DNA of 54,262 bases, from NCBI GenBank assembly GCA_016206085.1, contig JACQSF010000002.1:1-54262 (forward strand), written 5' to 3'. The notes beneath the pieces were generated by a model. It saw only the letters and a program-made list of their open reading frames with translations, was not told the DNA's origin and made no database searches. Shown in pieces: positions 547-26,400 of this stretch (the first letter of the stretch is position 1; each line of letters starts with the position of its first letter). The position numbers and the translations under genes are program-made. This DNA comes from Candidatus Uhrbacteria bacterium (GTDB lineage Bacteria > Patescibacteriota > Patescibacteriia > UBA9934 > GWF2-40-263).

Positions 547-837
547 TTATTCATTCTTCAACCCTGCGAAGCCGCCCAAAATAGCACCGACGAGGGTTCC
601 AAGACCCATGCCTAAAAATGGAGCAATGACTTGTGGACCCTCCTCAAACACATCCGGTAGGATGATGATCGAGATATATTTAATCGCGACTCCCAAGATG
701 AGACCCGCGATGAGACCGGCGATCGCGCCACCAACGGAGTCGCGAAGCATGTTAAGGAACGGACTAATTTGTTTTGCCATAAGGAACAAAGATAAGAGTA
801 TACAGACAGCATACTTCTTTCGATGTATTTTTTCCAT
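547..837 (-). CDS. Small Gly-rich membrane protein (hypothetical)
   Basis: 96-aa ORF with two hydrophobic GxxxG-rich helices. Start uncertain (783 is an alternative). Confidence 0.55.
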   Translation of the reverse strand: MEKIHRKKYAVCILLSLFLMAKQISPFLNMLRDSVGGAIAGLIAGLILGVAIKYISIIILPDVFEEGPQVIAPFLGMGLGTLVGAILGGFAGLKNE

Positions 838-864
838 GCATCAGGTATAATGATTCCACTCCTT

Positions 865-1638
865 ATGGCGCATATTATTTCCGTAGTTAATCAGAAAGGA
901 GGTGTGGGGAAAACAACGACGGCTTTGAATTTAGCCGCGTTTTTAGCTTCTGCGGGGAAGTTCATCTTGCTTGTCGATCTTGATCCTCAAGCCAATGCGA
1001 CGTCTGGTGTTGGTATTGATCACAAGACGTTACCCGCTGGTGTCTACGAGGGACTGGTTGGTTCTCATGCTTTGCGTAACTTGATTCATCCGACCGCGCA
1101 CGAAGGATTGAGTATCTTGCCAGCAACTCAGGCTCTTGCGGGAGCAAGTGTGGAATTGGTGAATGCGGAAGAACGCGAACACTTCTTACGCAAGGCGCTT
1201 CTAGAAGTCCGCAATGACTACGACTACATCTTCATCGATAACCCGCCCAGCCTTGGCATGCTGACCATCAACGGGCTTGTCGCGGCTGACTCGGTGCTTA
1301 TTCCGGTTCAGGCCGAGTATTTTGCCCTGGAAGGTCTCTCGCAATTACTCAACACCGTGAACCTCGTGCGCGACAACATCAAACCAGATTTGGACGTCAT
1401 GGGAGCCGTGATCACAATGTATGATGGTCGCACACGACTCTCCAAGGAAGTTCTCGAAGAACTCTACCGATACTTTCCTGATAAGATTTTCCGCTCCGTC
1501 ATCCCGCGTTCGGTTCGTCTGGCCGAAGCCCCGAGTTTTGGGAAAACCATTTTGGGTTATGACCCGGCGTCGAAAGCTGCCAAGGCGTACGAACGTCTCG
1601 CTCGAGAATTTTTGTTACGTGAAGAAGGTCGCATTTAG
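865..1638 (+). CDS. parA: Chromosome partitioning ATPase ParA/Soj
   Basis: Deviant Walker A QKGGVGKTT, DLDPQAN, DNPPSLG, IPRSVRLAEAPS. Start refined to MAHIISV. Confidence 0.96.
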   Translation: MAHIISVVNQKGGVGKTTTALNLAAFLASAGKFILLVDLDPQANATSGVGIDHKTLPAGVYEGLVGSHALRNLIHPTAHEGLSILPATQALAGASVELVNAEEREHFLRKALLEVRNDYDYIFIDNPPSLGMLTINGLVAADSVLIPVQAEYFALEGLSQLLNTVNLVRDNIKPDLDVMGAVITMYDGRTRLSKEVLEELYRYFPDKIFRSVIPRSVRLAEAPSFGKTILGYDPASKAAKAYERLAREFLLREEGRI

Positions 1639-3207: not shown

Positions 3208-4707
3208 TCATTTCTTTGCCTTCTCTCGTCCTTTGAGAACCTCGGCGAACCATCCTTTGACGGTGTGACGTGTTGAATCTTTAATTTTGCTGCGCGCATG
3301 GCGAGTCTTGGCGAATTTGAGCCAGTCCGGGTTAGGACCGCGTCGGTTCTTGTCTGTGATGACCTCGACGATGTCGCCTGATTGCAAAGGAGTGTCGAGA
3401 TTGCGCATGACTTCGTTTACACGAGCCGCCGTACATTTGTTGCCGACTTCCGTGTGAATCGCATAGGCGAAGTCCACAGGCGTCGCTCCTTCAGGCAAGT
3501 CGATAACGTCTCCTTCTGGAGTGAAGACAAAAATGCGATCCTTAAATACATCAATCTTCATGACTTCCAGTTGTTCCATGAAGTCTTTTTTGCTTTGGAG
3601 TTCTTTTTGAATCTGAGCGAGTTCTTCCATCCAGCGGGTATTGCGCATGGGTTTACTGGATCCTTCCTTGTATCGCCAGTGTGAGGCCACACCGTACTCG
3701 GCCAGCTCATGCATTTCAAGTGTCCTGATTTGAAACTCCACGATTTCGCCGTTTTGTGTAAAGACCGTTGTATGGAGTGATTGATAGCCGTTGGGTTTGG
3801 GTTGGGCGATGTAGTCCTTGATACGCCCAGGAACCGGCCGCCAATGTTGATGCAACAACCCAAGAACCATGTAGCACTCCTCCACGTCTGAGACGATGAT
3901 TCGCACCGCAATGAGATCGTAGATTTTGCTTAAGTCTCCTTGATACTTGTTGAGCTTTTTGAAGAGGCTATACAAACGTTTAATGCGCCCGTGCACTTGA
4001 AAGTCCTCAATGCTGGTTGTGGTTAAAAGCTTTTCAACCGAATCAATAATGCGACTGGCATAGGCTCCTTTTTCACGAACCTTAATGTCCATGATGTTCT
4101 TCATTCGTTCAAACTCTTTGGGGTGGAGATAGGCGAAAGATCCATCCTCTAGCTCTCCCTTGAACTCGCTCATCCCCAGGCGTCCGGCGATCGGCGCATA
4201 AATTTCCAACGACTCACGCGCGATGCGTTCCTGTTTGTGCTTGGGTTGACCGTAGAGCGTTTCCAGGTTGTGGAGGCGATCGGCAAATTTCATAAACACG
4301 ACACGGACATCGCTTGCCATCGCTAAAAACATCTTACGCATGTTTTCCGCGTAGCGTTCCGCCCCGCGATACTTGATTCCGTGTTTGAGTTTCGTTACGG
4401 CCTCGACGAGACCCGCGATATCTTCCCCAAATTGGGTTTTAAGGTCCTCAATGGTGACAGGAGAATCTTCAACGACATCATGCAAAAGTCCCGCGACGAC
4501 CACATTGAGATGGAGTCCCATTTCTGCGAGGCGATACGAAACGGCAAGTGGATGCGTAATGACCGGATGTCCGGTGAGACGCACCTCACCCTTGTGCGCC
4601 TTGTCCGCCAACGCAAAAGCGCGTCGAAGCGTTTCGAGATCCGGATTCTTGTACGTTTTTTCAACGAGTCGTTCAAGCTCGCCGTAGGTGCGGACAATTT
4701 CACTCAT
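3208..4707 (-). CDS. rel: RelA/SpoT homologue (HD hydrolase + synthetase + TGS; lacks ZFD/ACT)
   Basis: LHDVVED, KFADRLHN, GRIKxLYS, NGYQSLH, EFQIRT and TGS motif VDFAYAIHTEVG; 499 aa. Confidence 0.93.
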   Translation of the reverse strand: MSEIVRTYGELERLVEKTYKNPDLETLRRAFALADKAHKGEVRLTGHPVITHPLAVSYRLAEMGLHLNVVVAGLLHDVVEDSPVTIEDLKTQFGEDIAGLVEAVTKLKHGIKYRGAERYAENMRKMFLAMASDVRVVFMKFADRLHNLETLYGQPKHKQERIARESLEIYAPIAGRLGMSEFKGELEDGSFAYLHPKEFERMKNIMDIKVREKGAYASRIIDSVEKLLTTTSIEDFQVHGRIKRLYSLFKKLNKYQGDLSKIYDLIAVRIIVSDVEECYMVLGLLHQHWRPVPGRIKDYIAQPKPNGYQSLHTTVFTQNGEIVEFQIRTLEMHELAEYGVASHWRYKEGSSKPMRNTRWMEELAQIQKELQSKKDFMEQLEVMKIDVFKDRIFVFTPEGDVIDLPEGATPVDFAYAIHTEVGNKCTAARVNEVMRNLDTPLQSGDIVEVITDKNRRGPNPDWLKFAKTRHARSKIKDSTRHTVKGWFAEVLKGREKAKK

Positions 4708-4755
4708 AAAATTGAGGATACCTTGTCAGAGGCTCCTCGTAAAGGGAAAATCCCG

Positions 4756-4784
4756 TTGACGGCGAAGAAATTTTCTGCTATATT
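4756..4784 (+). promoter_or_regulatory. Putative sigma70 promoter
   Basis: TTGACG-17 nt-TATATT with a TGn extension. Confidence 0.6.
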
Positions 4785-4807
4785 TGGAGCAATTCACTAG
4801 AATAGTT

Positions 4808-5587
4808 ATGGCAATAAAACCACGACGTCTCCCAGAGGGAGGATCAGATCGATCACCAGAGGAAGTCATTCCTTCTCGACGCGCAGAAGCAGAGGCTTCA
4901 CCTGGAGCAGCTCCATCATCTGAAACAAGAAGCTCGTCAGATGCTGTTGACCCTGTGGCGATTGAAGCGGCACGAGCCCGAGCAATGGCATCAGGATCAT
5001 CGCGCACAGAAGAACCAAAAGAAGACAAAAAAACATGGTTTGATTTTTCAAAGGATGTGGGGTCGCGAGCCGAAAAAGTCGGGAAGGGAGGACTTCAAGT
5101 GTTGGGAGGGTCTCTGGTGGTAGCCGGGTATCTTGGCTATCAGACCAGTCGTCCAGTGCTGTTTACAACCGCCCGCGCCCTGGATTGGATTGGACACAAG
5201 ATGAACAGCTTGGCAGACAGGCTCATCGACAAAAAATTTCCTCTATTGAGTTGGATCGTCAACCCGGCAGTCTCATTACTTGATTCGTTTGCCAAGTCGC
5301 TTGGGATCGATAAGGCCCTTGCTGAACATTTGAGAAAGAATAGGGAGGATCGCAGGAAGCTCGCGGAAAAGGTTCTGAAAGAATATCGAGCTTCTGAAAC
5401 AACGTGCGAGAAAAAAATCGACGATGCTGCCTCGAGAGCCAGACGTCGCAGAGTTATTGAGGAGAAACTTGGAAAAGATGTAGCGGATGCACTTGGTGAT
5501 GATGTCGATGCCGCAGCCACAGCTGCAGCCGCCGGTTCAAAAGCGACAGAAGCACCAAAACCTGTGGAAGCAGTGAAGACAACATAA
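4808..5587 (+). CDS. Hypothetical protein (disordered N-terminus, amphipathic middle, coiled-coil C-terminus)
   Basis: Long ORF between a promoter and a terminator. Start moved to the ATG at 4808, downstream of the predicted promoter. Confidence 0.75.
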   Translation: MAIKPRRLPEGGSDRSPEEVIPSRRAEAEASPGAAPSSETRSSSDAVDPVAIEAARARAMASGSSRTEEPKEDKKTWFDFSKDVGSRAEKVGKGGLQVLGGSLVVAGYLGYQTSRPVLFTTARALDWIGHKMNSLADRLIDKKFPLLSWIVNPAVSLLDSFAKSLGIDKALAEHLRKNREDRRKLAEKVLKEYRASETTCEKKIDDAASRARRRRVIEEKLGKDVADALGDDVDAAATAAAAGSKATEAPKPVEAVKTT

Positions 5588-16440: not shown

Positions 16441-17196
16441 ATGTCCCTGGCAGAGAAGATGACCGAAAACATGAAGGCTGCCATGAAAGCCAAAGACAGC
16501 GCAACGCTTTCCACGTTGCGTTTGTTGATTTCTGCGTTGAAGAATAAAAAGATCGATGTTCAGCACGAACTTTCCGAGACGGAGGTGATGGACGTGGTGA
16601 AGAGTCAGGTAAAGCAGTTGAAGGATTCGATTGAGTCGTTCAAGACAGGAGGACGTGAGGACTTGGCTCAAAGTGCACAGGTGGAAGTCACGGCGCTTGA
16701 GCAGTACCTCCCAACGCAGATGAGTGACGAAGAACTCGCCCAAGTTGTCCAAGAGGCCGTTGAGAAGAGTGGAGCCACCAGCCGCGCCGATATGGGCAAA
16801 GTGATGGGTGTGGCGATGGCAGCCGTTTCTGGACGTGCGGATGGATCACGCGTGAAAGAAATTGTCGGAACGCTCTTGTCTGCGTTTGTGCCCGTGGTGG
16901 TTGGTCTCGGACTTTTTACCTTAGACGCCCACGCAGCCGTTCCTCTCATCGATAATTTCACCACGGGAACATCGTACTTCGAGTTCATGCTACGGATCGT
17001 GCGAGTGCTCGTTTTGTGGATGGGGGTTGTGGCTATCACACTTATTTTAAGTGGAGGATTTCAGTATATGAAGGCCTCCAACAATGACAACGAACATGAA
17101 ATAGCGTTGGCAAAAATAGTTAAAGGTCTGTTTAGCACACTTGCCGTCGGAGGCATTTTTGCTTTTTGCACTATTTACTTGGAGCGACTCTACTAA
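16441..17196 (+). CDS. GatB/YqeY-domain protein fused to a C-terminal TrbC/VirB2-type pilin-like membrane domain
   Basis: About 145 aa of YqeY (MKAAMKAKD...LRLL...EQYLPTQMS...MGKVMG...ADGSRV), then a hydrophobic segment, AHA, and two TM helices around GGFQYM. Confidence 0.85.
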   Translation: MSLAEKMTENMKAAMKAKDSATLSTLRLLISALKNKKIDVQHELSETEVMDVVKSQVKQLKDSIESFKTGGREDLAQSAQVEVTALEQYLPTQMSDEELAQVVQEAVEKSGATSRADMGKVMGVAMAAVSGRADGSRVKEIVGTLLSAFVPVVVGLGLFTLDAHAAVPLIDNFTTGTSYFEFMLRIVRVLVLWMGVVAITLILSGGFQYMKASNNDNEHEIALAKIVKGLFSTLAVGGIFAFCTIYLERLY

Positions 17197-17310
17197 CTAC
17201 ACGGAGGATACTATAATGGGGTTTGGTTCACACCATCCTTTTTTATTAAAGAAAAGAAAAAGGCGACAAACAATATGTTCATCGCCGTCGTTGTCAGTAG
17301 CCACCACTAC

Positions 17311-18267
17311 CTACGGTGAACAATCCTTCTGAGGTTCGCAGCGACGGTCATAGTACGGTTGGCACTTGTCGGTCGGTGAGCAGTCCGGACGGCAGCTTCC
17401 GCGTGGTCTGCAGTCGGGTCCGCACTCTCCGTCAGTGGCGCGCTCCGGGTGCTCCACGTTGAGCCTTTCGAGGAAGCGCTGCATGGTGGCACCTTCGGCC
17501 AGGATGGAGAGGCCAGTGTTGACATTTCCCAGTTGTGTGAACTTGGAGAACACGCACGGGTAAACGTCCCCGTTGTAGTCGATGGCCATCTTGGTGTTGC
17601 CGCAGGCGCCGCAGAGCTCCTTGAAAGGATCGCGGATCGCGTCCAGGCTCACCACGCCGCGGCCGAAGCCACGCATGCGATCGGAGCCAACATTCTTCAC
17701 GCCCAGGGCGCGTATCTGCGCGATCGTCGCTTCGATGGTGTCGTCGTTGACGCCAGGGATCTCGATGACCCCGACACGAACCTGTAGTCCGAGCTCGACG
17801 GCTCGGATGATCGCGGCGCGTGTCTTCTGGTGGCTGCCCTGGCGGGTGGTCACGACGTCGTGGATCTCAGCTTTGGTCGCGTAGTAGGAGAAGGCCATAC
17901 GCACGTTGTTCTGGGCGAGCACATTCCACAGCTCGTTCTTGATGGTCGTCCCGTTGGTGTAGATGCCGACGTTGATCCCAAGCTCGGTGGCGGTCGCGAT
18001 GAGCAGGCCGATGTCCGGGTGGAGCGTGGGTTCACCGCCGATGAAGTCGACGAACTCGACACCAAGGTTGGCCGCTTCGGTCAGGACACGGATCCAGTCC
18101 TTCGTTGCCATGCTCCCTAGCAGGGGTAGACGAGGGTCCGATTCCTCGTAGCAGTGTGTGCACTCGAGGTTGCACTGACGAGTCAGCTCCAGCCACAGGA
18201 AGGTGAGCTTTGAGTGGTTTGTGTCCAGGTCGGTGATGTCTTGAATGGCGTTCGCGTCGACACGCAT
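17311..18267 (-). CDS. Radical SAM enzyme with Twitch/SPASM-like motif and a CxP-repeat tail
   Basis: CNLECTHC, IGGEPT, TNG, CGACG...IDYNGDVYPC; seven CxP motifs at the C-terminus; SD AAGGAG before ATG 18267. Confidence 0.92.
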   Translation of the reverse strand: MRVDANAIQDITDLDTNHSKLTFLWLELTRQCNLECTHCYEESDPRLPLLGSMATKDWIRVLTEAANLGVEFVDFIGGEPTLHPDIGLLIATATELGINVGIYTNGTTIKNELWNVLAQNNVRMAFSYYATKAEIHDVVTTRQGSHQKTRAAIIRAVELGLQVRVGVIEIPGVNDDTIEATIAQIRALGVKNVGSDRMRGFGRGVVSLDAIRDPFKELCGACGNTKMAIDYNGDVYPCVFSKFTQLGNVNTGLSILAEGATMQRFLERLNVEHPERATDGECGPDCRPRGSCRPDCSPTDKCQPYYDRRCEPQKDCSP

Positions 18268-18457
18268 GTCGACTCCTTGGGTTTGAGTATGGAGGTTGGC
18301 GATCTTCTGCCGATTTCTTAATAGCATAAGAGGTAATCGATGTCGAGAGATCCAGGTGTCTTCATCGATACCGCCTGTTCTTTTGTTTTGTCCACATCTT
18401 TTCGACGACCGTTGAACACAAATACGCTACAATAGAAGCACGCTGAGACGGACCCAC

Positions 18458-20341
18458 ATGCATCGACCTCTCACGCACCCAACCATAGAGTCTTTTGTAC
18501 GTGCGCTCATTCTTTTGATCGTGGCGTTTTGTGTTTTTGGTTTGCTGATGGCCGCTGTGCCAGCCTTGGCGCAAGAAACAGCCTTTGAGCAATTCGGTGA
18601 TGCTTCGACTCTTTCTCAAGACTCGATTGCGATTATTATCGCTCGAGTTATTCGTGTCGCGCTTACGCTTGTTGGGATTATCTTTACTTGTCTTATTATC
18701 TACGCAGGGTTTCTCTATCTGTTGGCTCGTGGAGAACCAGAACCGATCAAGAAGGCGAAGAATATTTTTCGACAGTCCATCATCGGTCTTATCATCATTT
18801 TTTCTGCATACTCGATTGCGACTTTTATCTTGAACCGATTGCTAGATGCGGCCTTTACTGGAACCTCTGAAGCGATTGCCGATGCCTACTCCGAACCGCT
18901 CTCCGGTTCTCTGGGTGGGGGGATCCTTGATGACCACTATCCTGAGCGTGACGCGGTCGACATCCCGCGCAACACGCGAATTTTTGTGAGCTTTAAGGAG
19001 CCAATCGATCCTAAGTCGATTATCAGTAATTATGACGAGGATACTGAGACGGCAGATTATTTGAATACGGACTCAATTATTATTTACCCAACTGCAGAGG
19101 GAGTGGGTTCGGCGCTGGGTGAGACAGAAGTCGTTGTGAGGTATGACGAGGACTTCGAGATTTTCGTCTTCGACCCTGTGGAATACCTTGGGAGTTCACA
19201 GGAAGACACAAACTACACCGTGACGCTCACGAAAAAAATTCAAAAGGCAACAGGCTCCGCTGCATTCTCGGGTATGTACGCCGACGGCTATTCGTGGACG
19301 TTTGAAGTGTCTACCGAGATTGATCTCACCCCTCCGTACGTCACAAGCATTGTTCCGGCTGCGGGCGCAGATGAGCCACGCAACGTGACCGTCGAGATTA
19401 ACTTCAGCGAGGCGATGGATCCCGTTGCAACGACGGGCTCCTACATTGAAGACGAAGACAGTTTCTTTACGAATATTCAAGTACTGGATTCGACTCTTGA
19501 AGTCGTCGAAGGAACATTTGAGATTAGCAACGGGTATCGCACGATCAGCTTCACCACGACAGACGCTTGTGGAGAGGATCCGTGTGGGGACACCATCTAT
19601 TGCTTGCCGACGAACCAACTTATTTCAGCCGTTGCCAAAGCTGCCACGCTTAATGAAGAGGAAATTCCTCAGGCGGAGCCAACGGGATACACGTTTGATG
19701 GGGTCGTGGATGCGGCCGCCAATTCGCTCGATGGGGACAATGATGGAAATGCCTGTGGATCTGAAACTGACACAATTGAGTGTGAAGACGGGGATGACAA
19801 TGACAACTACGAGTGGAGTTTTACGACCAATGATGAAATTGAGGACACCGTTCCGCAGATCATTGAGGGCGGACTAGACCCAGAGATCAAAGAAGACGAG
19901 ATTAGCACCAGCGCAGACGTGGAGGTGACGTTCAATACTTATCTGAAGTCTTCGACGGTCAAGACCAACAGCGTCTCGCTCTGGCCGGATCCGTATTATG
20001 AGTTCTGGTTTGCAATCCGCAAAGACAATGATGATGAGAATGAACGAACGACCGTCCTTATTGAGCATCCGTCCTTGGTGAGTACTGCTGAGGGTGGATG
20101 GGATTATTGGCCTGTCTTGAACAATGAGATCAAGAGCGCGTATCAGATTTGTATGTACCCAGCGATTGGTCCGGGAGCGAACTGCGTGGAAGGACGAGAC
20201 CAGGAGCGTCCTTACTGCTGTAACGGAATCGCCTCGGATCAAGCTTGTCAGACCCAGGTGCAAGAATCCATTGAGGAGTATCCGATTCCTGCCAGCATCT
20301 CGGATTACAACCTTCCAGATAACACCGAGACTGAATTATAA
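18458..20341 (+). CDS. Surface protein: T4SS-pilin-like N-terminal membrane domain plus Ig-like domains
   Basis: Signal-like segment ending ALA; IIARVIRVAL...YAGFLY...IKKAKNIF..SIIGLIII pilin-like hairpin; Ig-like repeats (IFVSFKEPIDP, VEINFSEAMDP, VEVTFNTYL); very acidic. Confidence 0.85.
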   Translation: MHRPLTHPTIESFVRALILLIVAFCVFGLLMAAVPALAQETAFEQFGDASTLSQDSIAIIIARVIRVALTLVGIIFTCLIIYAGFLYLLARGEPEPIKKAKNIFRQSIIGLIIIFSAYSIATFILNRLLDAAFTGTSEAIADAYSEPLSGSLGGGILDDHYPERDAVDIPRNTRIFVSFKEPIDPKSIISNYDEDTETADYLNTDSIIIYPTAEGVGSALGETEVVVRYDEDFEIFVFDPVEYLGSSQEDTNYTVTLTKKIQKATGSAAFSGMYADGYSWTFEVSTEIDLTPPYVTSIVPAAGADEPRNVTVEINFSEAMDPVATTGSYIEDEDSFFTNIQVLDSTLEVVEGTFEISNGYRTISFTTTDACGEDPCGDTIYCLPTNQLISAVAKAATLNEEEIPQAEPTGYTFDGVVDAAANSLDGDNDGNACGSETDTIECEDGDDNDNYEWSFTTNDEIEDTVPQIIEGGLDPEIKEDEISTSADVEVTFNTYLKSSTVKTNSVSLWPDPYYEFWFAIRKDNDDENERTTVLIEHPSLVSTAEGGWDYWPVLNNEIKSAYQICMYPAIGPGANCVEGRDQERPYCCNGIASDQACQTQVQESIEEYPIPASISDYNLPDNTETEL

Positions 20342-20433: not shown

Positions 20434-23400
20434 ATGAGACGACGATCAACATTTTTTGCCCTTTTGCTTGCACTGATCCTCAGTGTCGGGATTTTTGTCG
20501 CTCTTCCGACGTATGCACAGGACGTCGACTTTGAATCATTCGCTGAAACAGCAGGATTTTCTACCACCGCCAGTATCACGGTCATTATCGCGCGACTCAT
20601 CCGCACCGCAATCACGCTCGTGGGTGTCGTGACGGTCGTATTCCTGGTGTATGGGGGGTTTGTGTGGATGACCTCAGGAGGAGATGCCACGCGACTGAAA
20701 AAGGCCAAAGACATTATTACCAACGCGATCATTGGTTTGCTTCTTGTATTTGCGAGCTTTGCGATCGTCTCGTTTGTGTTGAACGCGCTTGTAGGCGCGA
20801 CTGGTGGAGACATCTCCGGAAATAGTGACTCGGGCTCGGGTTCGTATTCCGATGGAGGCGGAGGATCCTCGTTTTATCTCAGCTCCGTGAATACCGAGTG
20901 TGCCGAGGCGCTACAGAATTTACAGCTACAGTTTATTTTTTCGAAAAAGGTTGATGCGGATACGATCGAGGAAGGAATCGTGATTGAGGACGCGGGGGGT
21001 GGAGTTGTCGAAGGAACGTTTTCCACCTCAAGTCGCACGGTTATCTTCACCCCTTTACAAACCTGCGACAGTCCATACGAAGACGAATTCTGCTTTGACG
21101 CGCTTGCGAGCTACACTATCGACGTCGATTCGACCATTATTGAATCATCGAGTGGCGCATCGCTCACCTGTACCACAACCTATCCTTGTAGCTTTAGCTT
21201 CACCACGGGTTCTGCGATCGACATCGACGACCCAACTGTTGAGATGGATGCCCCCGAAGATGGGGAGAGCCTCTATGTTGGTTCGATTGAACTTGTACAG
21301 GCGTTGACAGCAGACGATAGTGGTGTTTCTACTGTCGATTTTTACGTCGTTGTTGATGATGAGGCGATTTATTCTTCGGGCGTTGACTATTCCAGCGCGG
21401 GAACCCTTACGGGCGAGAATGTTGAGAACGCGTTTTTTACAGACACCGCAGAAGAATGGGACACGGAAGGCTATACCACCAACGAAGAATACGACATTTG
21501 GGCCACAGGATATGACTGTGCCGGTAACACGGATACGGCAAGTCGTGTCACGGTCGTGCTTCGAGCGGCAAACTGCAATAACGAAGTGCTTGATGAGGAC
21601 TTAGGAGAGACCGATGTTGATTGCGGCGGGGACTCAAGCAGTGCGTATTATTGCGGATCCTGTGACGGGGATTCGTGTACAGAGAATTCTCAATGTGCGA
21701 GCGGCCAGTGTGTGGATGGACAATGTGTCACGACCCCAAAGATCGAGGGCGTTTCGCCGGGAGATGGAGCCGTCGATAATCTCATCACGATTTCTGGAGA
21801 AGGTTTTGGGGGTGAAGAAGGCGTTCTTACATTTTTGGGAACTGAGTTAGGCGACGAGGTGGATGTGAGCGCCTATGAGTGTAACGCTGAAGTTCAGTGG
21901 TCAGATTCAGAGATTATCGTTCAGGTTCCAGGTGCCGCCATCGATGGTCCGATATCCGTGACAACGTCCGAGGATGAAACCGAACGGACAGATGATGACT
22001 ATGGTCCATCTATCGCCGACTTTGACGTGAACGCCATTGCGCGGCCGGGGATTTGTCTACTCGATCCAAGCGCAGACGATTATGGAAGTCCCATTGATGT
22101 GTATGGCAACAGTTTTGGTGAGGAACAGGGATCGTCGACATTCTATTTTACCAACTATGAGGCTTCCTCGTATGTATCCTGGCTGGATGACCAGTTAGAG
22201 GTGGTCGTGCCGAACGTAAACTCTGGATCATATCGGACACAGGTTTTCACGGGTGACTTTGTGTGTATCGACGCTGAGGGAAGTGCAACAGCCACGACCT
22301 GTTCCGACGATACCGACTGCGATACCGAAACGGGAGAGAGTTGTGCAACATCATGGTGCTCCGAGACACTCGATTATTGTGAGACCGATGATGACTGTGG
22401 AGATGAGGAGGGAAGTTGTGAATCGATTCGCGTTGGATCCAATGAAGTCTCCTTTACGGTTGCAGACGTCTCAAGTGATTCGACACCCATTATTTCCTCG
22501 ATCGACTCAGGATGGAAAGCCTGTTCTGACGACAACACGCATTGTGGAGACGATGACGACTGTTCCGAGGGGGCAACCTGTGATGACGCCCCCAACTGGG
22601 GACCACCAGGTCAGTACATAACCATTTACGGGACAGGATTTGGCACATCAACGGGGTCCATCTTTTTTGAAAATGAATCTCTTGGGTACACCGCGCTGGG
22701 TGACACGGATTTCCCCGATGCCTGTGGCGATGATTTTTGGCATGACACCTACGTAACCGTAAAGGTGCCGGAAACCTATCAAACAGAAAGTCTCGATGCG
22801 ATTGAAGCTATTGAACACGCCTTGACGCTTGAGCGCGCGGATGGTGTCGATTCTGCCTCCGTGGACTTTGTTGTGTTGGACGACACTCCAGGGCCAGCGA
22901 TTTGTGATGTTGATCCCTCCGCAGGGCCTGCGGATACGGAGGTGACGATTTATGGTGAAAATTTTGGAACTGACGATGGAACAGTGACGTTTTATAGCAT
23001 CCAAGAAGCTGACTATTCTTTGTGGGAGAATGATGAGATTTCCAGCGTTGTTGTGCCGGATGAGGCCGCAACAGGACCTGTGTATGTGGAAGAAGCGGAA
23101 AATGGGTACTCGTCCAATTCGATCACATTTACGGTCGGCGACTGTCGAGAAGAAGCAGAGTTATGTGATGCTGAGGAGGGGACGAGCTGTTGTTCGGATG
23201 GCTCGTGCTCATTTGATTGTGGTGAAAGAGATGAAGTGGAAGCGCATTATGCGTTCATGATTACGACCGGTATCACGCCCAACACGCCAAATGTCATTGT
23301 GTCTTGTACGGAGTCAGGAGTCTCGCCAACGCCGTGGGAAGGCTGGAGCCAACCGGAAGACGTCTGTGTGACCGCAAGCGTGGAGGCTGAGTTCGACATG

Positions 23401-26400
23401 GCCATGGATCAGGATACGATTACAACGTCGACGGTTATTGTGCGAGCCTGTACAGCGGAGTTTACCGCGGAGGAAGAAGAGGCTGAGGAGACGATCTGCT
23501 CTTTTACAGGTACATCTTGTGATGACGATGATGATTGTACACAGGAGGATGAGGAGTGTCTTGCTCCTAGAGAGGGTGAATGCAAAAACTGGGAGGCGGT
23601 GAGTGGAAGTGTTGCAACCGATGAAACGGGTTTTGCTTGGTCGCCGACAGATTCTTTTGAGACGTCCACGCTCTATCGCGTGACCCTCCAAGGAGAGGAT
23701 CAGATTGCCAGTGAGGACAGCGGATACATGGTAGAAGACTATACCTGGGAGTTTACGACCAGTTCCTCAGGAGCCCCCTGTGAGGTTGGTGATGTGAACG
23801 TGCGTCCAAGTGAATATACCGAAACAGAACAAACAGACGTTGACTACTCGGCGCAGCTCATTGCTGCTAATGATTTGTGTGTGGCCGTGAGCTGTACAGG
23901 CTATACGCTTAACTGGGAGTCTGATTTTGATGGCGCGACGATCGCCACGGCTGAACCTGGGGCAGGAATTTGTACGAATGAAGTTTCGGCGGTTGATGAG
24001 ACGCCTGCTAATGATCCAGCACGTATTACCGCAACGGTGACGAATGCGGAAAATGATCCGTCGGACGATGGCTACTTGACGATCAATTTCCTCGATCCAG
24101 AAATTGACGACTACTTTCCGCAATGTTCGACTGCCTGCGTGAATGCCCTGCCCTGGGGAGAGTTTAATACGGTCATGTCCGATACGACGATCAGTGCGAG
24201 CAGTGTGACGCTGTATGAATGTTTGAATTCCTTGTGTGAGACATCGGGTTTGGATGAAGTCGATTTTGTTGATTCGATCAGTTACAGCTCGACGACCCAG
24301 AAGTTTTATATCAATTTTGAAGATGAAGAGACGATGGATCCCAACACCTGGTATCGGGTCGTCGTCGATGGGGATGCTGTTCTTTCGTATACAGGTGTGG
24401 CCTTGTCAGAATCTGGATCAAACTACGGAACCGACGAGAACCGCTATTTTGAAGATGATTTTTCTTGGAGATTTAAAACGAAAGACAGTTCTGTAAGCTG
24501 CGCGATTGATTCCGTCACCCTAGACCCAGAACTCGCGACCATGACGTACATCGGGGAGCGAGCGGAATTTGACGCAACCGGACAGGGAGCTCCGGATGAT
24601 TGTTCTGCGGCCGGCCAAACGCTTCAGTCAGGTTCGTATGAGTGGGAAGCATGGACCGCAACAGACTCACCCAACAATGTGGGAGGTACGTCTGGTAGCG
24701 AGTCCGCGCAAGATGAGATCGTGGCATACATGATTTCGGATGGAGCCATTGGGCTCACGAGTTCGATTCCTACTTACTGTACGGCCGCGTGTCTCAATGC
24801 TGGTGCGCCTGTTACAACGGCGGAAGGCGTTTGCGGAAATGGAGACATTGAGGATTCAGAAGAATGTGATGACGGGGGAGTGGAGGATGATGATGGATGT
24901 TCGAGTGTTTGTTTGAATGAAGGATCGAACTCGACCTGTGGCGACGGGGACATCGACGATGGGGAAGATTGTGATGACAGCAATACCACAGGAGGCGATG
25001 GGTGTTCGTCGATCTGTTTGAACGAAGGTTCTCGATCCATTGGGGCAACTTGCGGAGATGGAACACAAGACTGGGTGGCGAATACAGGAGGAGAGGATTG
25101 TGATGACGGGAACTCAGCGGCGGGTGATGGATGTTCCAACAACTGTCTGCTTGAGGGATCTACATCCGAGGAAGATGTGTATGCGGTCTGTGGAGACGGT
25201 ACGGTTGACGACGGAGAGGATTGCGATCCGGGAGATTGGAGCGCAGAAGGAGATGGCTGTTCCGCAAGCTGTCTGTATGAAGGAACGAGTGCCTGTCCGA
25301 CGAGCGCGTCAACAAAGTGTTGTGGAAATGATGACGTAGAAACAGGCGAGGAATGTGATGGAGAGGAAGGATGTTCTTCAAGATGTTTGTGGGCGGGTTC
25401 GTCTTATTCCTATTCGACTTCTTCGTTTTGTGGAGATGGCGATGATACAGGGATAGGTGAGGAGTGCGATGCCCTTTCTACAGCCACGCTTTCTGTTGGG
25501 GATTACGGAGTCGGTCAGGTTGCCACTGGGGCACCGGAAGAAGTGAACGAGTCAACGGGATACGCCATCTCGACTGTGTCAGTAACCGTGGATGGAGATG
25601 TCACCGGAAAGGCAACGCTCCAGCTTCAGTGTGCCTGTACGACAGACGCGTCCTGTGGGGTGACCGGTATTGGATGTGGAGACAAGAATTGTTGCTATGA
25701 ACGGCCGACACTTGTGGATGGCCAAGTTTATCCAGCGGAAAATTCAGGCACCCTTGAGGCAGGTGGGGATGGCTATTGTCGCAACACGGCCATCTGGCTT
25801 GAGTTTTCGCAGATGATGGATGAGGCGACGTTTGATGAGACCGTCGATGATGATGGCGACGGCATTGATGAGACGACCGATGGCGATGGAATTATTCAAC
25901 AGAATGAGTTTGACGCGAATCTATATCTTGATCTTGTCTCGGTCGATTCCAACGGCGACGGAACCCAAGAAAAGATTGATGAGATTGCCGATTGTCCAAC
26001 CGGCTATGACGGGGCGTCCGTGAGTTCCGCAACCAGCGCTGGGGCACGATTCTGGCATTGGATCAAGTCGCTGGTGCTTGGGGTATTTGGACGCGAGGCC
26101 AGCGCAAGTGATACCTTCGCCTGCCATGTTCCTGTGACCTATGAGATTTCGCAGAATACTGATGGCAGTATGCGCGCCTACTTGCGGTACAGTACGCTCT
26201 TGGAAGAAAACGCGGTTTACCGACTTGTGGTCATTGGAGATGATAATGCGACAGACCTGATAAAAGATGGGGTCTTGAGTGAGGATGCCGTCACGCTGTG
26301 TTTAGGGGCGACGTGTGGAGACGATGTTTTTAATCAGAAGTTTGAAATTGGTGAAGACATCTGTGATTTGGATCGCGTCGTCGTGGAGGATCTTGGAGAT

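Follow-up and report, generated by a model that had tools for sequence, protein, structure and literature searches.

Thioether-forming radical S-adenosylmethionine (SAM) enzymes such as CteB and its relatives typically carry an auxiliary Fe-S cluster with an open iron that binds a Cys of the substrate. A C-X-X-Q/D motif is reported to indicate thioether formation by radical SAM enzymes: C-x-x-D/Q units are reported ranthionine sites, and CAVD and PCAGD in the protein CrpA are the sites modified by CrpC (PMC13692751). Among the borosins both fused and split enzyme-substrate architectures are documented (bioRxiv 10.1101/2021.12.24.474128; PMC8429565). Here we analysed a stretch of 54,262 nucleotides, contig JACQSF010000002.1 of a Candidatus Uhrbacteria bacterium (assembly GCA_016206085.1), referred to as the window, in which a minus-strand gene encodes a radical SAM enzyme of 318 amino acids (the window protein) that ends in an array of C-x-P units. 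The gene is a horizontally acquired member of a large, unnamed clade of radical SAM enzymes, which most likely bring their own C-x-P substrate with them. We lean, with some reserve, towards the reading that this one protein is a self-contained peptide-modification module, combining a radical SAM enzyme with a tethered C-x-P substrate on which it acts by thioether chemistry.

The elements on which the argument turns lie at the following positions of the window:

17314 to 18267, minus strand: coding sequence of the 318-residue radical SAM/Twitch enzyme with fused C-x-P tail (stop codon at 17311 to 17313)
18151 to 18174, minus strand: radical SAM cluster motif C32-x3-C36-x2-C39 (CNLECTHC), invariant in 147 of 147 aligned homologues
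17554 to 17613, minus strand: Twitch or first-half SPASM motif C219-x2-C222-x10-G233-x4-C238, its three Cys invariant in 147 of 147
17314 to 17427, minus strand: disordered C-terminal tail, residues 281 to 318, with seven C-x-P units; candidate fused core peptide

The window protein matches the Pfam family Radical_SAM (PF04055) with an E-value of 1.6e-23 (84 bits against a cut-off of 29.5) and SPASM (PF13186) with 4.5e-6, the latter at profile positions 2 to 53 of 67 only. In an AlphaFold2 model based on an alignment of 147 sequences its core consists of alternating strands and helices, the partial TIM barrel being a feature of radical SAM enzymes, and residues 20 to 275 have a predicted local distance difference test score (pLDDT) above 90. 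The initial annotation, made from the sequence without database searches, had recognised a CxxxCxxC and a Twitch-like motif, and both were confirmed, as C32-x3-C36-x2-C39 and C219-x2-C222-x15-C238. These six residues are the only invariant Cys of the fused family in the 147 homologues aligned, where G233 is nearly invariant as well. The pattern of the first SPASM half, CX9-15GX4C, is present as C222-x10-G233-x4-C238; the second half, CX2CX5CX3C with a distal Cys, which ligates a second auxiliary cluster, is not matched, the tail reading Cx3Cx5Cx3C. C219, C222 and C238 together with a β-hairpin at residues 226 to 236 would suit a Twitch enzyme of the SkfB, BtrN and MoaA type, in which a truncated SPASM domain carries a single auxiliary cluster, and the three Cys are the likely ligand set of one auxiliary [4Fe-4S] cluster. 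N-terminal to the radical SAM core there are only about 20 residues and no leader-binding domain.

The tail, ECGPDCRPRGSCRPDCSPTDKCQPYYDRRCEPQKDCSP, comprises 38 residues, among them seven Cys and seven Pro. All seven Cys, and with them all seven Pro, stand in C-x-P units, just as the initial annotation had it for the Cys, and none of 1,000,000 composition-preserving shuffles of the tail reached seven such units. Residues 286 to 314 have a pLDDT below 50. When the 877-kb genome was translated in all six frames, the tail was the sole stretch to hold more than three C-x-P, and a search for small C-x-P-rich open reading frames (ORFs) elsewhere in the genome, which had been suggested along with that annotation, returned none besides it.

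The gene had also been called an orphan. This holds in so far as no partner genes adjoin it, but it is not without relatives, the tail being the hallmark of a very large family: 442 representative clusters (50% identity) match the window protein at E < 1e-30, and species-representative genomes contain at least 574 loci. The hosts are mostly Streptomyces and other Actinomycetota, further ones being Acidobacteriota, Dormibacterota, Eremiobacterota, Dyella, Hyphomicrobium and two members of the candidate phyla radiation (CPR). Conservation of the tail in homologues, a check proposed at the outset, was borne out, as the tails of 246 homologues together have 1,822 Cys, of which 1,764 (96.8%) lie in C-x-P. 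Of the residues in these tails 17.5% are Pro and 10.7% are Cys, and the median homologue has six C-x-P within its last 70 residues. The residue at +3 is D in 19%, E in 11%, S and N in 10% each and T in 8% of the units, and Arg occupies +4 in 8%. The tail begins 39 to 53 residues past C238, where the second SPASM Cys motif would lie; it holds between 3 and 26 Cys per protein, with unconserved spacing of the first four (8,8,8 and 3,3,3 being commonest), and the canonical Cx2Cx5Cx3C spacing is found in 3 of 239 members. These spacing statistics rule out a fixed motif, and the tail was rejected as a canonical second SPASM half. The variable number and spacing of the Cys and the low pLDDT of the tail argue for a disordered repeat array rather than a defined Fe-S site, and with the invariant C219 a single auxiliary cluster would have its three protein ligands and need no tail Cys.

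The most distant matches of the genome-contig scan, with 27 to 33% identity to the window protein, were enzymes of a split type. They possess an extra N-terminal domain of about 100 residues, probably a leader-binding domain, and a complete SPASM domain (Pfam profile positions 1 to 67 of 67) and have no C219, while the fused clade is devoid of the N-terminal domain; CNLxCxHCY and QFIGGEPT motifs are common to both. Directly adjoining the split enzymes on the same strand are small ORFs that encode a leader, (F/L)E(C/L)LT, followed by C-x-P repeats. Examples are the precursor of a Lentisphaeria locus, MIFKCLTKNEILVADKGCCPNDECRPYDECYPADCDCHPGDDSWCRPELGDECAP, and that of the cultured Blautia wexlerae (GCA_045864985.1), MYAYECLTSGKVHCEECSPFSGACYPEVEGVCGPDCSPEGGCSPDCGPWDVDCGPKVDFL; another split C-x-P locus is that of Methanothrix. 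The set of split loci was extended by a metagenome scan with four split enzymes as seeds, and metagenome loci with the same arrangement include one with three tandem precursors (L095) and one with 12 C-x-P units (L102). A C-x-P precursor ORF is present at 14 of 18 split loci but at only 2 of 57 loci of more distant SPASM radical SAM enzymes (Fisher p = 5.8e-10), where both are weak matches. In the cores of the split precursors 67 of 76 Cys lie in C-x-P, and D or E follows at +3 in 32 of 66 cases. The split family, too, is large: 577 proteins or more match at E up to 1e-20, and they bear generic names only.

A maximum-likelihood tree was calculated from 36 fused, 18 split and 34 other SPASM enzymes, with support from the Shimodaira-Hasegawa-like approximate likelihood ratio test (SH-aLRT). 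The fused proteins form one clade (SH-aLRT 100), and fused and split enzymes together form another (100). Of the 34 other SPASM radical SAM enzymes 33 fall outside the latter, the exception (L089) grouping with the split lineages. As the sister enzymes adjoin separate C-x-P precursor genes and fused and split enzymes share one clade, the tail is most likely a fused substrate. The simplest history starts from an enzyme that modified C-x-P peptides with the help of a leader-binding domain. After fusion with its core peptide this enzyme would have dispensed with that domain and with the second cluster of SPASM, and acquired C219.

That the tail is modified, by which chemistry, and what becomes of the product and what it does are matters on which we infer the following scheme. 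Residues 1 to 280 are a radical SAM enzyme that would have a single auxiliary Fe-S cluster of the Twitch type, to which C219, C222 and C238 are the probable ligands, leaving one iron free, and the last 38 residues or so would be a flexible tail, the attached equivalent of the separate C-x-P-repeat precursor peptides of the sister enzymes. Because the substrate is tethered, a leader peptide and a leader-binding domain would no longer be needed. The tail might thread into the active site of its own chain or, as in OphMA, of a partner subunit, where a tail Cys would bind to the auxiliary cluster at its open iron; a nearby residue would lose a hydrogen to the 5'-deoxyadenosyl radical, and a thioether cross-link would follow. 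The link could be of the Cys-x-x-Asp/Glu/Gln type (ranthionine) or to an α carbon (sactionine), the proposed sites being the C-x-P-(D/E/N/S/T/Q) units of the enzyme's own tail, within one molecule or between subunits. This would yield a C-terminal peptide rich in Cys and Pro and with several cross-links, which is either kept on the protein or freed by a housekeeping protease. Thioether chemistry is proposed because SkfB is the best match in sequence and fold and because C-X-X-Q/D is a reported thioether signature: the nearest solved structure is that of this Twitch thioether synthase (sequence profile 3.8e-26, fold 8e-16), and other fold neighbours are SuiB, MoaA, BlsE, PqqE, EpeE, anSME and CteB.

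More tentatively, and with less confidence than we have in the reading of the window protein itself, we suggest that the whole clade, with more than 440 clusters at 50% identity in hundreds of species, may consist of single-gene modules for peptides that are made by the ribosome and modified after translation (RiPPs). Each such 'auto-RiPP' enzyme would cross-link its own C-x-P tail, having swallowed the precursor and given up both the leader-binding domain and the second cluster of SPASM. With enzyme and substrate in one gene, the module could spread horizontally as a minimal cassette, repeatedly even into the ultra-small genomes of CPR bacteria.

Several points weigh against a fused substrate. 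Modification of the tail is something that we infer solely from gene architecture. MAFFT aligns tail residues C282, C286, C292 and C296 with the SPASM Cx2Cx5Cx2-3C of the split enzymes, and that SPASM motif itself ends in C-R-P; the tail could derive from this motif for cluster binding, in which case a second cluster might even now be bound by the first tail Cys. The tail columns may, moreover, have inflated the support of the fused clade in the tree. An acidic residue stands at +3 in 30% of the units of fused tails, less often than in those of split precursors, where it does so in 48%, and C-x-P-D occurs in only two of the seven units of the window protein. A fused substrate is wasteful, allowing at most one tail per enzyme molecule, and no protease or exporter is encoded nearby, hence there is no evidence of a released product.

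The initial annotation had left the choice between an in-cis precursor and a non-canonical Fe-S or metal site; this pair of readings is supported, and the comparative evidence favours the in-cis precursor. The second of them takes the tail for a degenerate, expanded second half of SPASM that binds one or more extra Fe-S clusters or another metal. It would serve to transfer electrons, to store or repair clusters or to sense metals, and the enzyme would have a small molecule or another protein as its true substrate. We regard this reading as rather unlikely, though with real arguments on its side. The tail lies where SPASM has its Cx2Cx5Cx3C motif, the distance from the Twitch Cys to the first tail Cys being 39 to 53 residues, the MAFFT alignment pairs four of its Cys with the four SPASM Cys of the split enzymes, and the exact spacing is kept in the three members mentioned; no substrate gene is conserved nearby (80 loci), and the fold neighbours MoaA, BlsE and viperin act on small molecules. 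Yet the number of tail Cys varies from 3 to 26 without conserved spacing, and Pro at +2 of 96.8% of them is a constraint foreign to canonical SPASM motifs. The Pfam SPASM match stops at profile position 53 of 67, the tail is modelled without structure next to a core with a pLDDT above 95, and the invariant C219 already completes a three-Cys auxiliary site. The same repeat, moreover, occurs in separate, leader-bearing genes beside sister enzymes that have a complete SPASM of their own. C-x-P is also the invariant part of the formylglycine motif in substrates of FGE and anSME, and the tail might undergo anSME-like chemistry, with the Cys of C-x-P being converted to formylglycine, or epimerisation or some other change without cross-linking. 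The fold comparison lends this some weight, as anSMEcpe is a clear neighbour (E about 1e-10, TM-score 0.60) and the epimerase EpeE is among the matches, but the sulfatase-type motif C-x-P-x-R was downgraded, +4 being Arg in only 8% of units, and the best match in both sequence and fold is the thioether synthase SkfB. The anSME model TIGR03942 is not among the top 25 NCBIfam matches of the window protein and scores 53 bits against a cut-off of 349 on a split relative, and the second auxiliary cluster of anSME is probably missing from the fused family, all of which makes such chemistry improbable.

Very improbable, in our estimate, is a viperin-like, single-gene anti-phage defence enzyme that makes a modified nucleotide or toxic small molecule and uses the tail for regulation or sensing. 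It would suit a one-gene cassette that moves into an intergenic hotspot, and some surroundings recall defence loci: one fused gene (L004) lies among genes for a NERD-kinase, AAA_15, GmrSD and an MmeI-type methylase, another (L003) beside those for a DNA methylase, an SNF2 helicase and a dynamin-like protein, a third (L001) beside an integrase and a transposase, and in 10 of 80 loci a neighbour encodes an HD_3 (YfbR-like) and HTH protein. Such a context was seen in three of the first nine loci and not in the others, which have no relation to defence (among them Dyella, Terriglobales and SecDF neighbours). The PADLOC pVip models match weakly (1e-17), but the matches cover residues 27 to 149 of 318 and profile positions 5 to 121 of 257, that is the generic radical SAM core, and the NCBIfam viperin model gives 56 bits against a cut-off of 180. 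A defence enzyme would, furthermore, leave the C-x-P rule and the precursor genes of the split systems without account.

The gene is present in a small genome (877 kb in 34 contigs, 51% GC). Three further features describe its setting:

18273 to 18278, minus strand: ribosome-binding site AAGGAG, read from the sequence, 5 nt 5' of the ATG at 18265 to 18267
17262 to 17286, minus strand: intrinsic terminator of the radical SAM gene, an 11-bp stem followed by TTTTTCTTTT
17197 to 18350, no strand assigned: inserted one-gene cassette of about 1.15 kb, from the YqeY stop codon to the displaced YqeY terminator/pilin-gene promoter region

The reading frame is genuine, judging from the AAGGAG site, the Radical_SAM match and the identical 318-residue protein among public gene calls (P0001); an alternative, longer start at 18327 (338 residues) has no ribosome-binding site. 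The gene lies antisense to its neighbours, between a YqeY-domain gene (16441 to 17196) and two T4SS_pilin-domain genes (18458 to 20341 and 20434 to 30600), in agreement with the antisense insertion into the pilin cluster that the initial annotation had described, and, again as described there, no precursor, protease or transporter gene adjoins it. The excess of GC at third codon positions (GC3) was likewise reproduced, with 0.80 in the gene, whose overall GC is 0.61, as compared with a GC3 of 0.49 to 0.58 in six neighbouring genes; the insert as a whole has a GC of 0.60 to 0.61, its flanks 0.48 to 0.52.

In four genomes of the same genus the order HisRS, S21, YqeY, pilin is kept with a YqeY-pilin spacer of 115 to 155 nt and no insert, while the spacer in the window measures 1,262 nt. 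Homology to the spacer of the relatives restarts at about 18355 to 18400 and includes the hairpin that follows YqeY in these genomes, which in the window (18355 to 18372) is now about 1.16 kb away from YqeY, beyond the radical SAM insertion. The empty site, the resumed homology and the shifted hairpin indicate that the radical SAM gene was inserted, as a single gene, between YqeY's stop codon and the terminator that belongs to it. Around the insertion neither flanking repeats nor a target-site duplication were found. The gene is absent from seven of seven genomes of the genus, and of 39 relatives searched one has a family member, which is 44% identical and also has a C-x-P tail. Where other hosts are poor in GC, the gene again has a GC content far above that of its flanks (0.46 against 0.28 in a Parcubacteria, 0.64 against 0.49 in a Lloydbacteria and 0.51 against 0.35 in another locus, L090), whereas in actinomycetes the two are equal, which points to repeated horizontal transfer of the fused gene from GC-rich donors. 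Into the small genome, too, the gene came horizontally, as a cassette of one gene that has a ribosome-binding site and a terminator of its own. Its occurrence in a metabolically reduced bacterium had been singled out as notable; it is indeed present there, but horizontal transfer of a one-gene cassette accounts for it.

The same YqeY-pilin site holds a different insert of about 1.1 kb in another genome of the genus (G003; L183:384-1501, corresponding to window 17197 to 18457), which contains an ORF of 269 residues with no known function (591 to 1400, minus strand); from this second insert the spacer looks like a hotspot for single-gene cargo. Of the neighbouring proteins, YqeY has its domain at residues 5 to 145, followed by about 100 hydrophobic-looking residues without a Pfam match. 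In both pilin-domain proteins a T4SS_pilin/TrbC-like domain stands at the start and Big_5 domains come after it; the second one, of 3,388 residues, has TIG and VWA domains in addition. Three TSP3-repeat proteins come next at 30602 to 33150.

Beyond the window, no conserved partner gene was found among 80 clustered loci, the commonest neighbour family being present in 15 of them. A conserved downstream partner was rejected, as the downstream gene differs by locus: it encodes an amidohydrolase in Dyella, a protein with weak similarity to 2-oxoglutarate (2OG)-Fe(II) oxygenases in Nocardia and elsewhere proteins without assigned function. The Nocardia genes (Nocardia sp. JW2, L006:9118-9534 and L007:1340-1927) lie directly 3' of the fused radical SAM gene, and their match to PF13640 (2OG-Fe(II), prolyl-hydroxylase type) is below the cut-off (2e-4 to 4e-4); the product might act on the Pro-rich tail. 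No named family emerged for the window protein either, Pfam, NCBIfam, PADLOC and PHROGs giving generic radical SAM and SPASM matches only. The best NCBIfam equivalog was MoaA with 77 bits against a cut-off of 325, and all 25 families listed stayed far below their cut-offs, among them (bits/cut-off) StsB (73/625), AlbA (65/850), SkfB (64/300), PapB (59/340) and viperin (56/180); those of PqqE, MftC, NirJ and anSME were not reached either. The names that the fused proteins carry at source are generic.

Some split loci encode further enzymes. In a metagenome-assembled genome of the Gammaproteobacteria (L085, 7836 to 11035) the C-x-P peptide is followed by an MbnB/TglH/ChrH enzyme (3.9e-75), a 263-residue partner of no known function and then the radical SAM/SPASM enzyme, one C-x-P precursor being common to two different types of Cys-modifying enzyme. 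L087 encodes a methyltransferase and, besides its main enzyme, another radical SAM protein whose match is weak. A second radical SAM enzyme is likewise present in Blautia wexlerae (L185:1739-6114, BTHI01000029.1), where the precursor (3722 to 3904), its radical SAM/SPASM gene (4001 to 5236) and the second radical SAM gene stand directly after a phage holin and an endolysin (Glucosaminidase/CHAP/CW_7); this peptide-modification cluster may be prophage-borne. At three loci (L102:1699-2097, L105:529-924 and L106:3419-3940) C-x-P repeats end longer proteins of 131 to 173 residues rather than short peptides.

Full-text searches of the literature returned no description of the fused family or of the C-x-P precursor peptides, only the analogies to CrpC/CrpA and the borosins, and Pfam, NCBIfam and PADLOC hold no specific name for either the fused or the split family. 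The analysis reveals a large uncharacterised family, together with sister C-x-P precursor clusters in gut and rumen bacteria. If the tail is a substrate, the window protein would be the first radical SAM counterpart of the borosin architecture, as far as the literature searched showed. It would unite catalyst and core peptide in one polypeptide, with neither leader nor recognition domain, and, reduced to one gene, would be a minimal system in which to study the way that radical SAM enzymes of the thioether-forming or a related kind engage their substrates, as well as a natural scaffold for cross-linked Cys/Pro peptides. As the module is a single gene, even a very small, reduced genome could gain and keep a complete peptide-modification module. 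The split systems, some of them in human gut Blautia and in rumen bacteria, would then represent an undescribed C-x-P class of modified peptides.

Compared with known systems, the window protein shares the radical SAM core and SPASM/Twitch region with SkfB, CteB, AlbA and PapB, as well as with QhpD and CrpC, which act on protein substrates. The substrates of this group of thioether-forming enzymes are Cys-rich repeats like the tail; leader-dependent maturases of sacti- and ranthipeptides, however, work on a separate precursor and have an N-terminal leader-binding domain (RiPP recognition element), both of which the window protein lacks, its Cys repeat lying inside the enzyme, and the substrates of the group do not show the strict Pro at +2. 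In anSME, a radical SAM/SPASM fold neighbour, the substrate motif C/S-x-P/A-x-R contains C-x-P, but anSME has two auxiliary clusters, acts on separate sulfatases and needs the Arg at +4. The closest lineages in the tree are the split C-x-P clusters of Blautia wexlerae, Lentisphaeria (L084) and Methanothrix (L083), which have the same C-x-P substrate repeat and differ from the window protein in the N-terminal domain of about 100 residues, the full SPASM, the separate leader-bearing precursor and, often, extra tailoring enzymes. The same logic is found in the borosins of the OphMA type, where the core peptide resides at the C-terminus of the enzyme and relatives are split, although these are SAM methyltransferases instead of radical SAM enzymes, carry out backbone N-methylation and have no sequence relationship to the window protein. 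To judge from the sequences, the fused family would be borosin-like in this respect, an enzyme-substrate fusion with homologous split systems that share its core motif.

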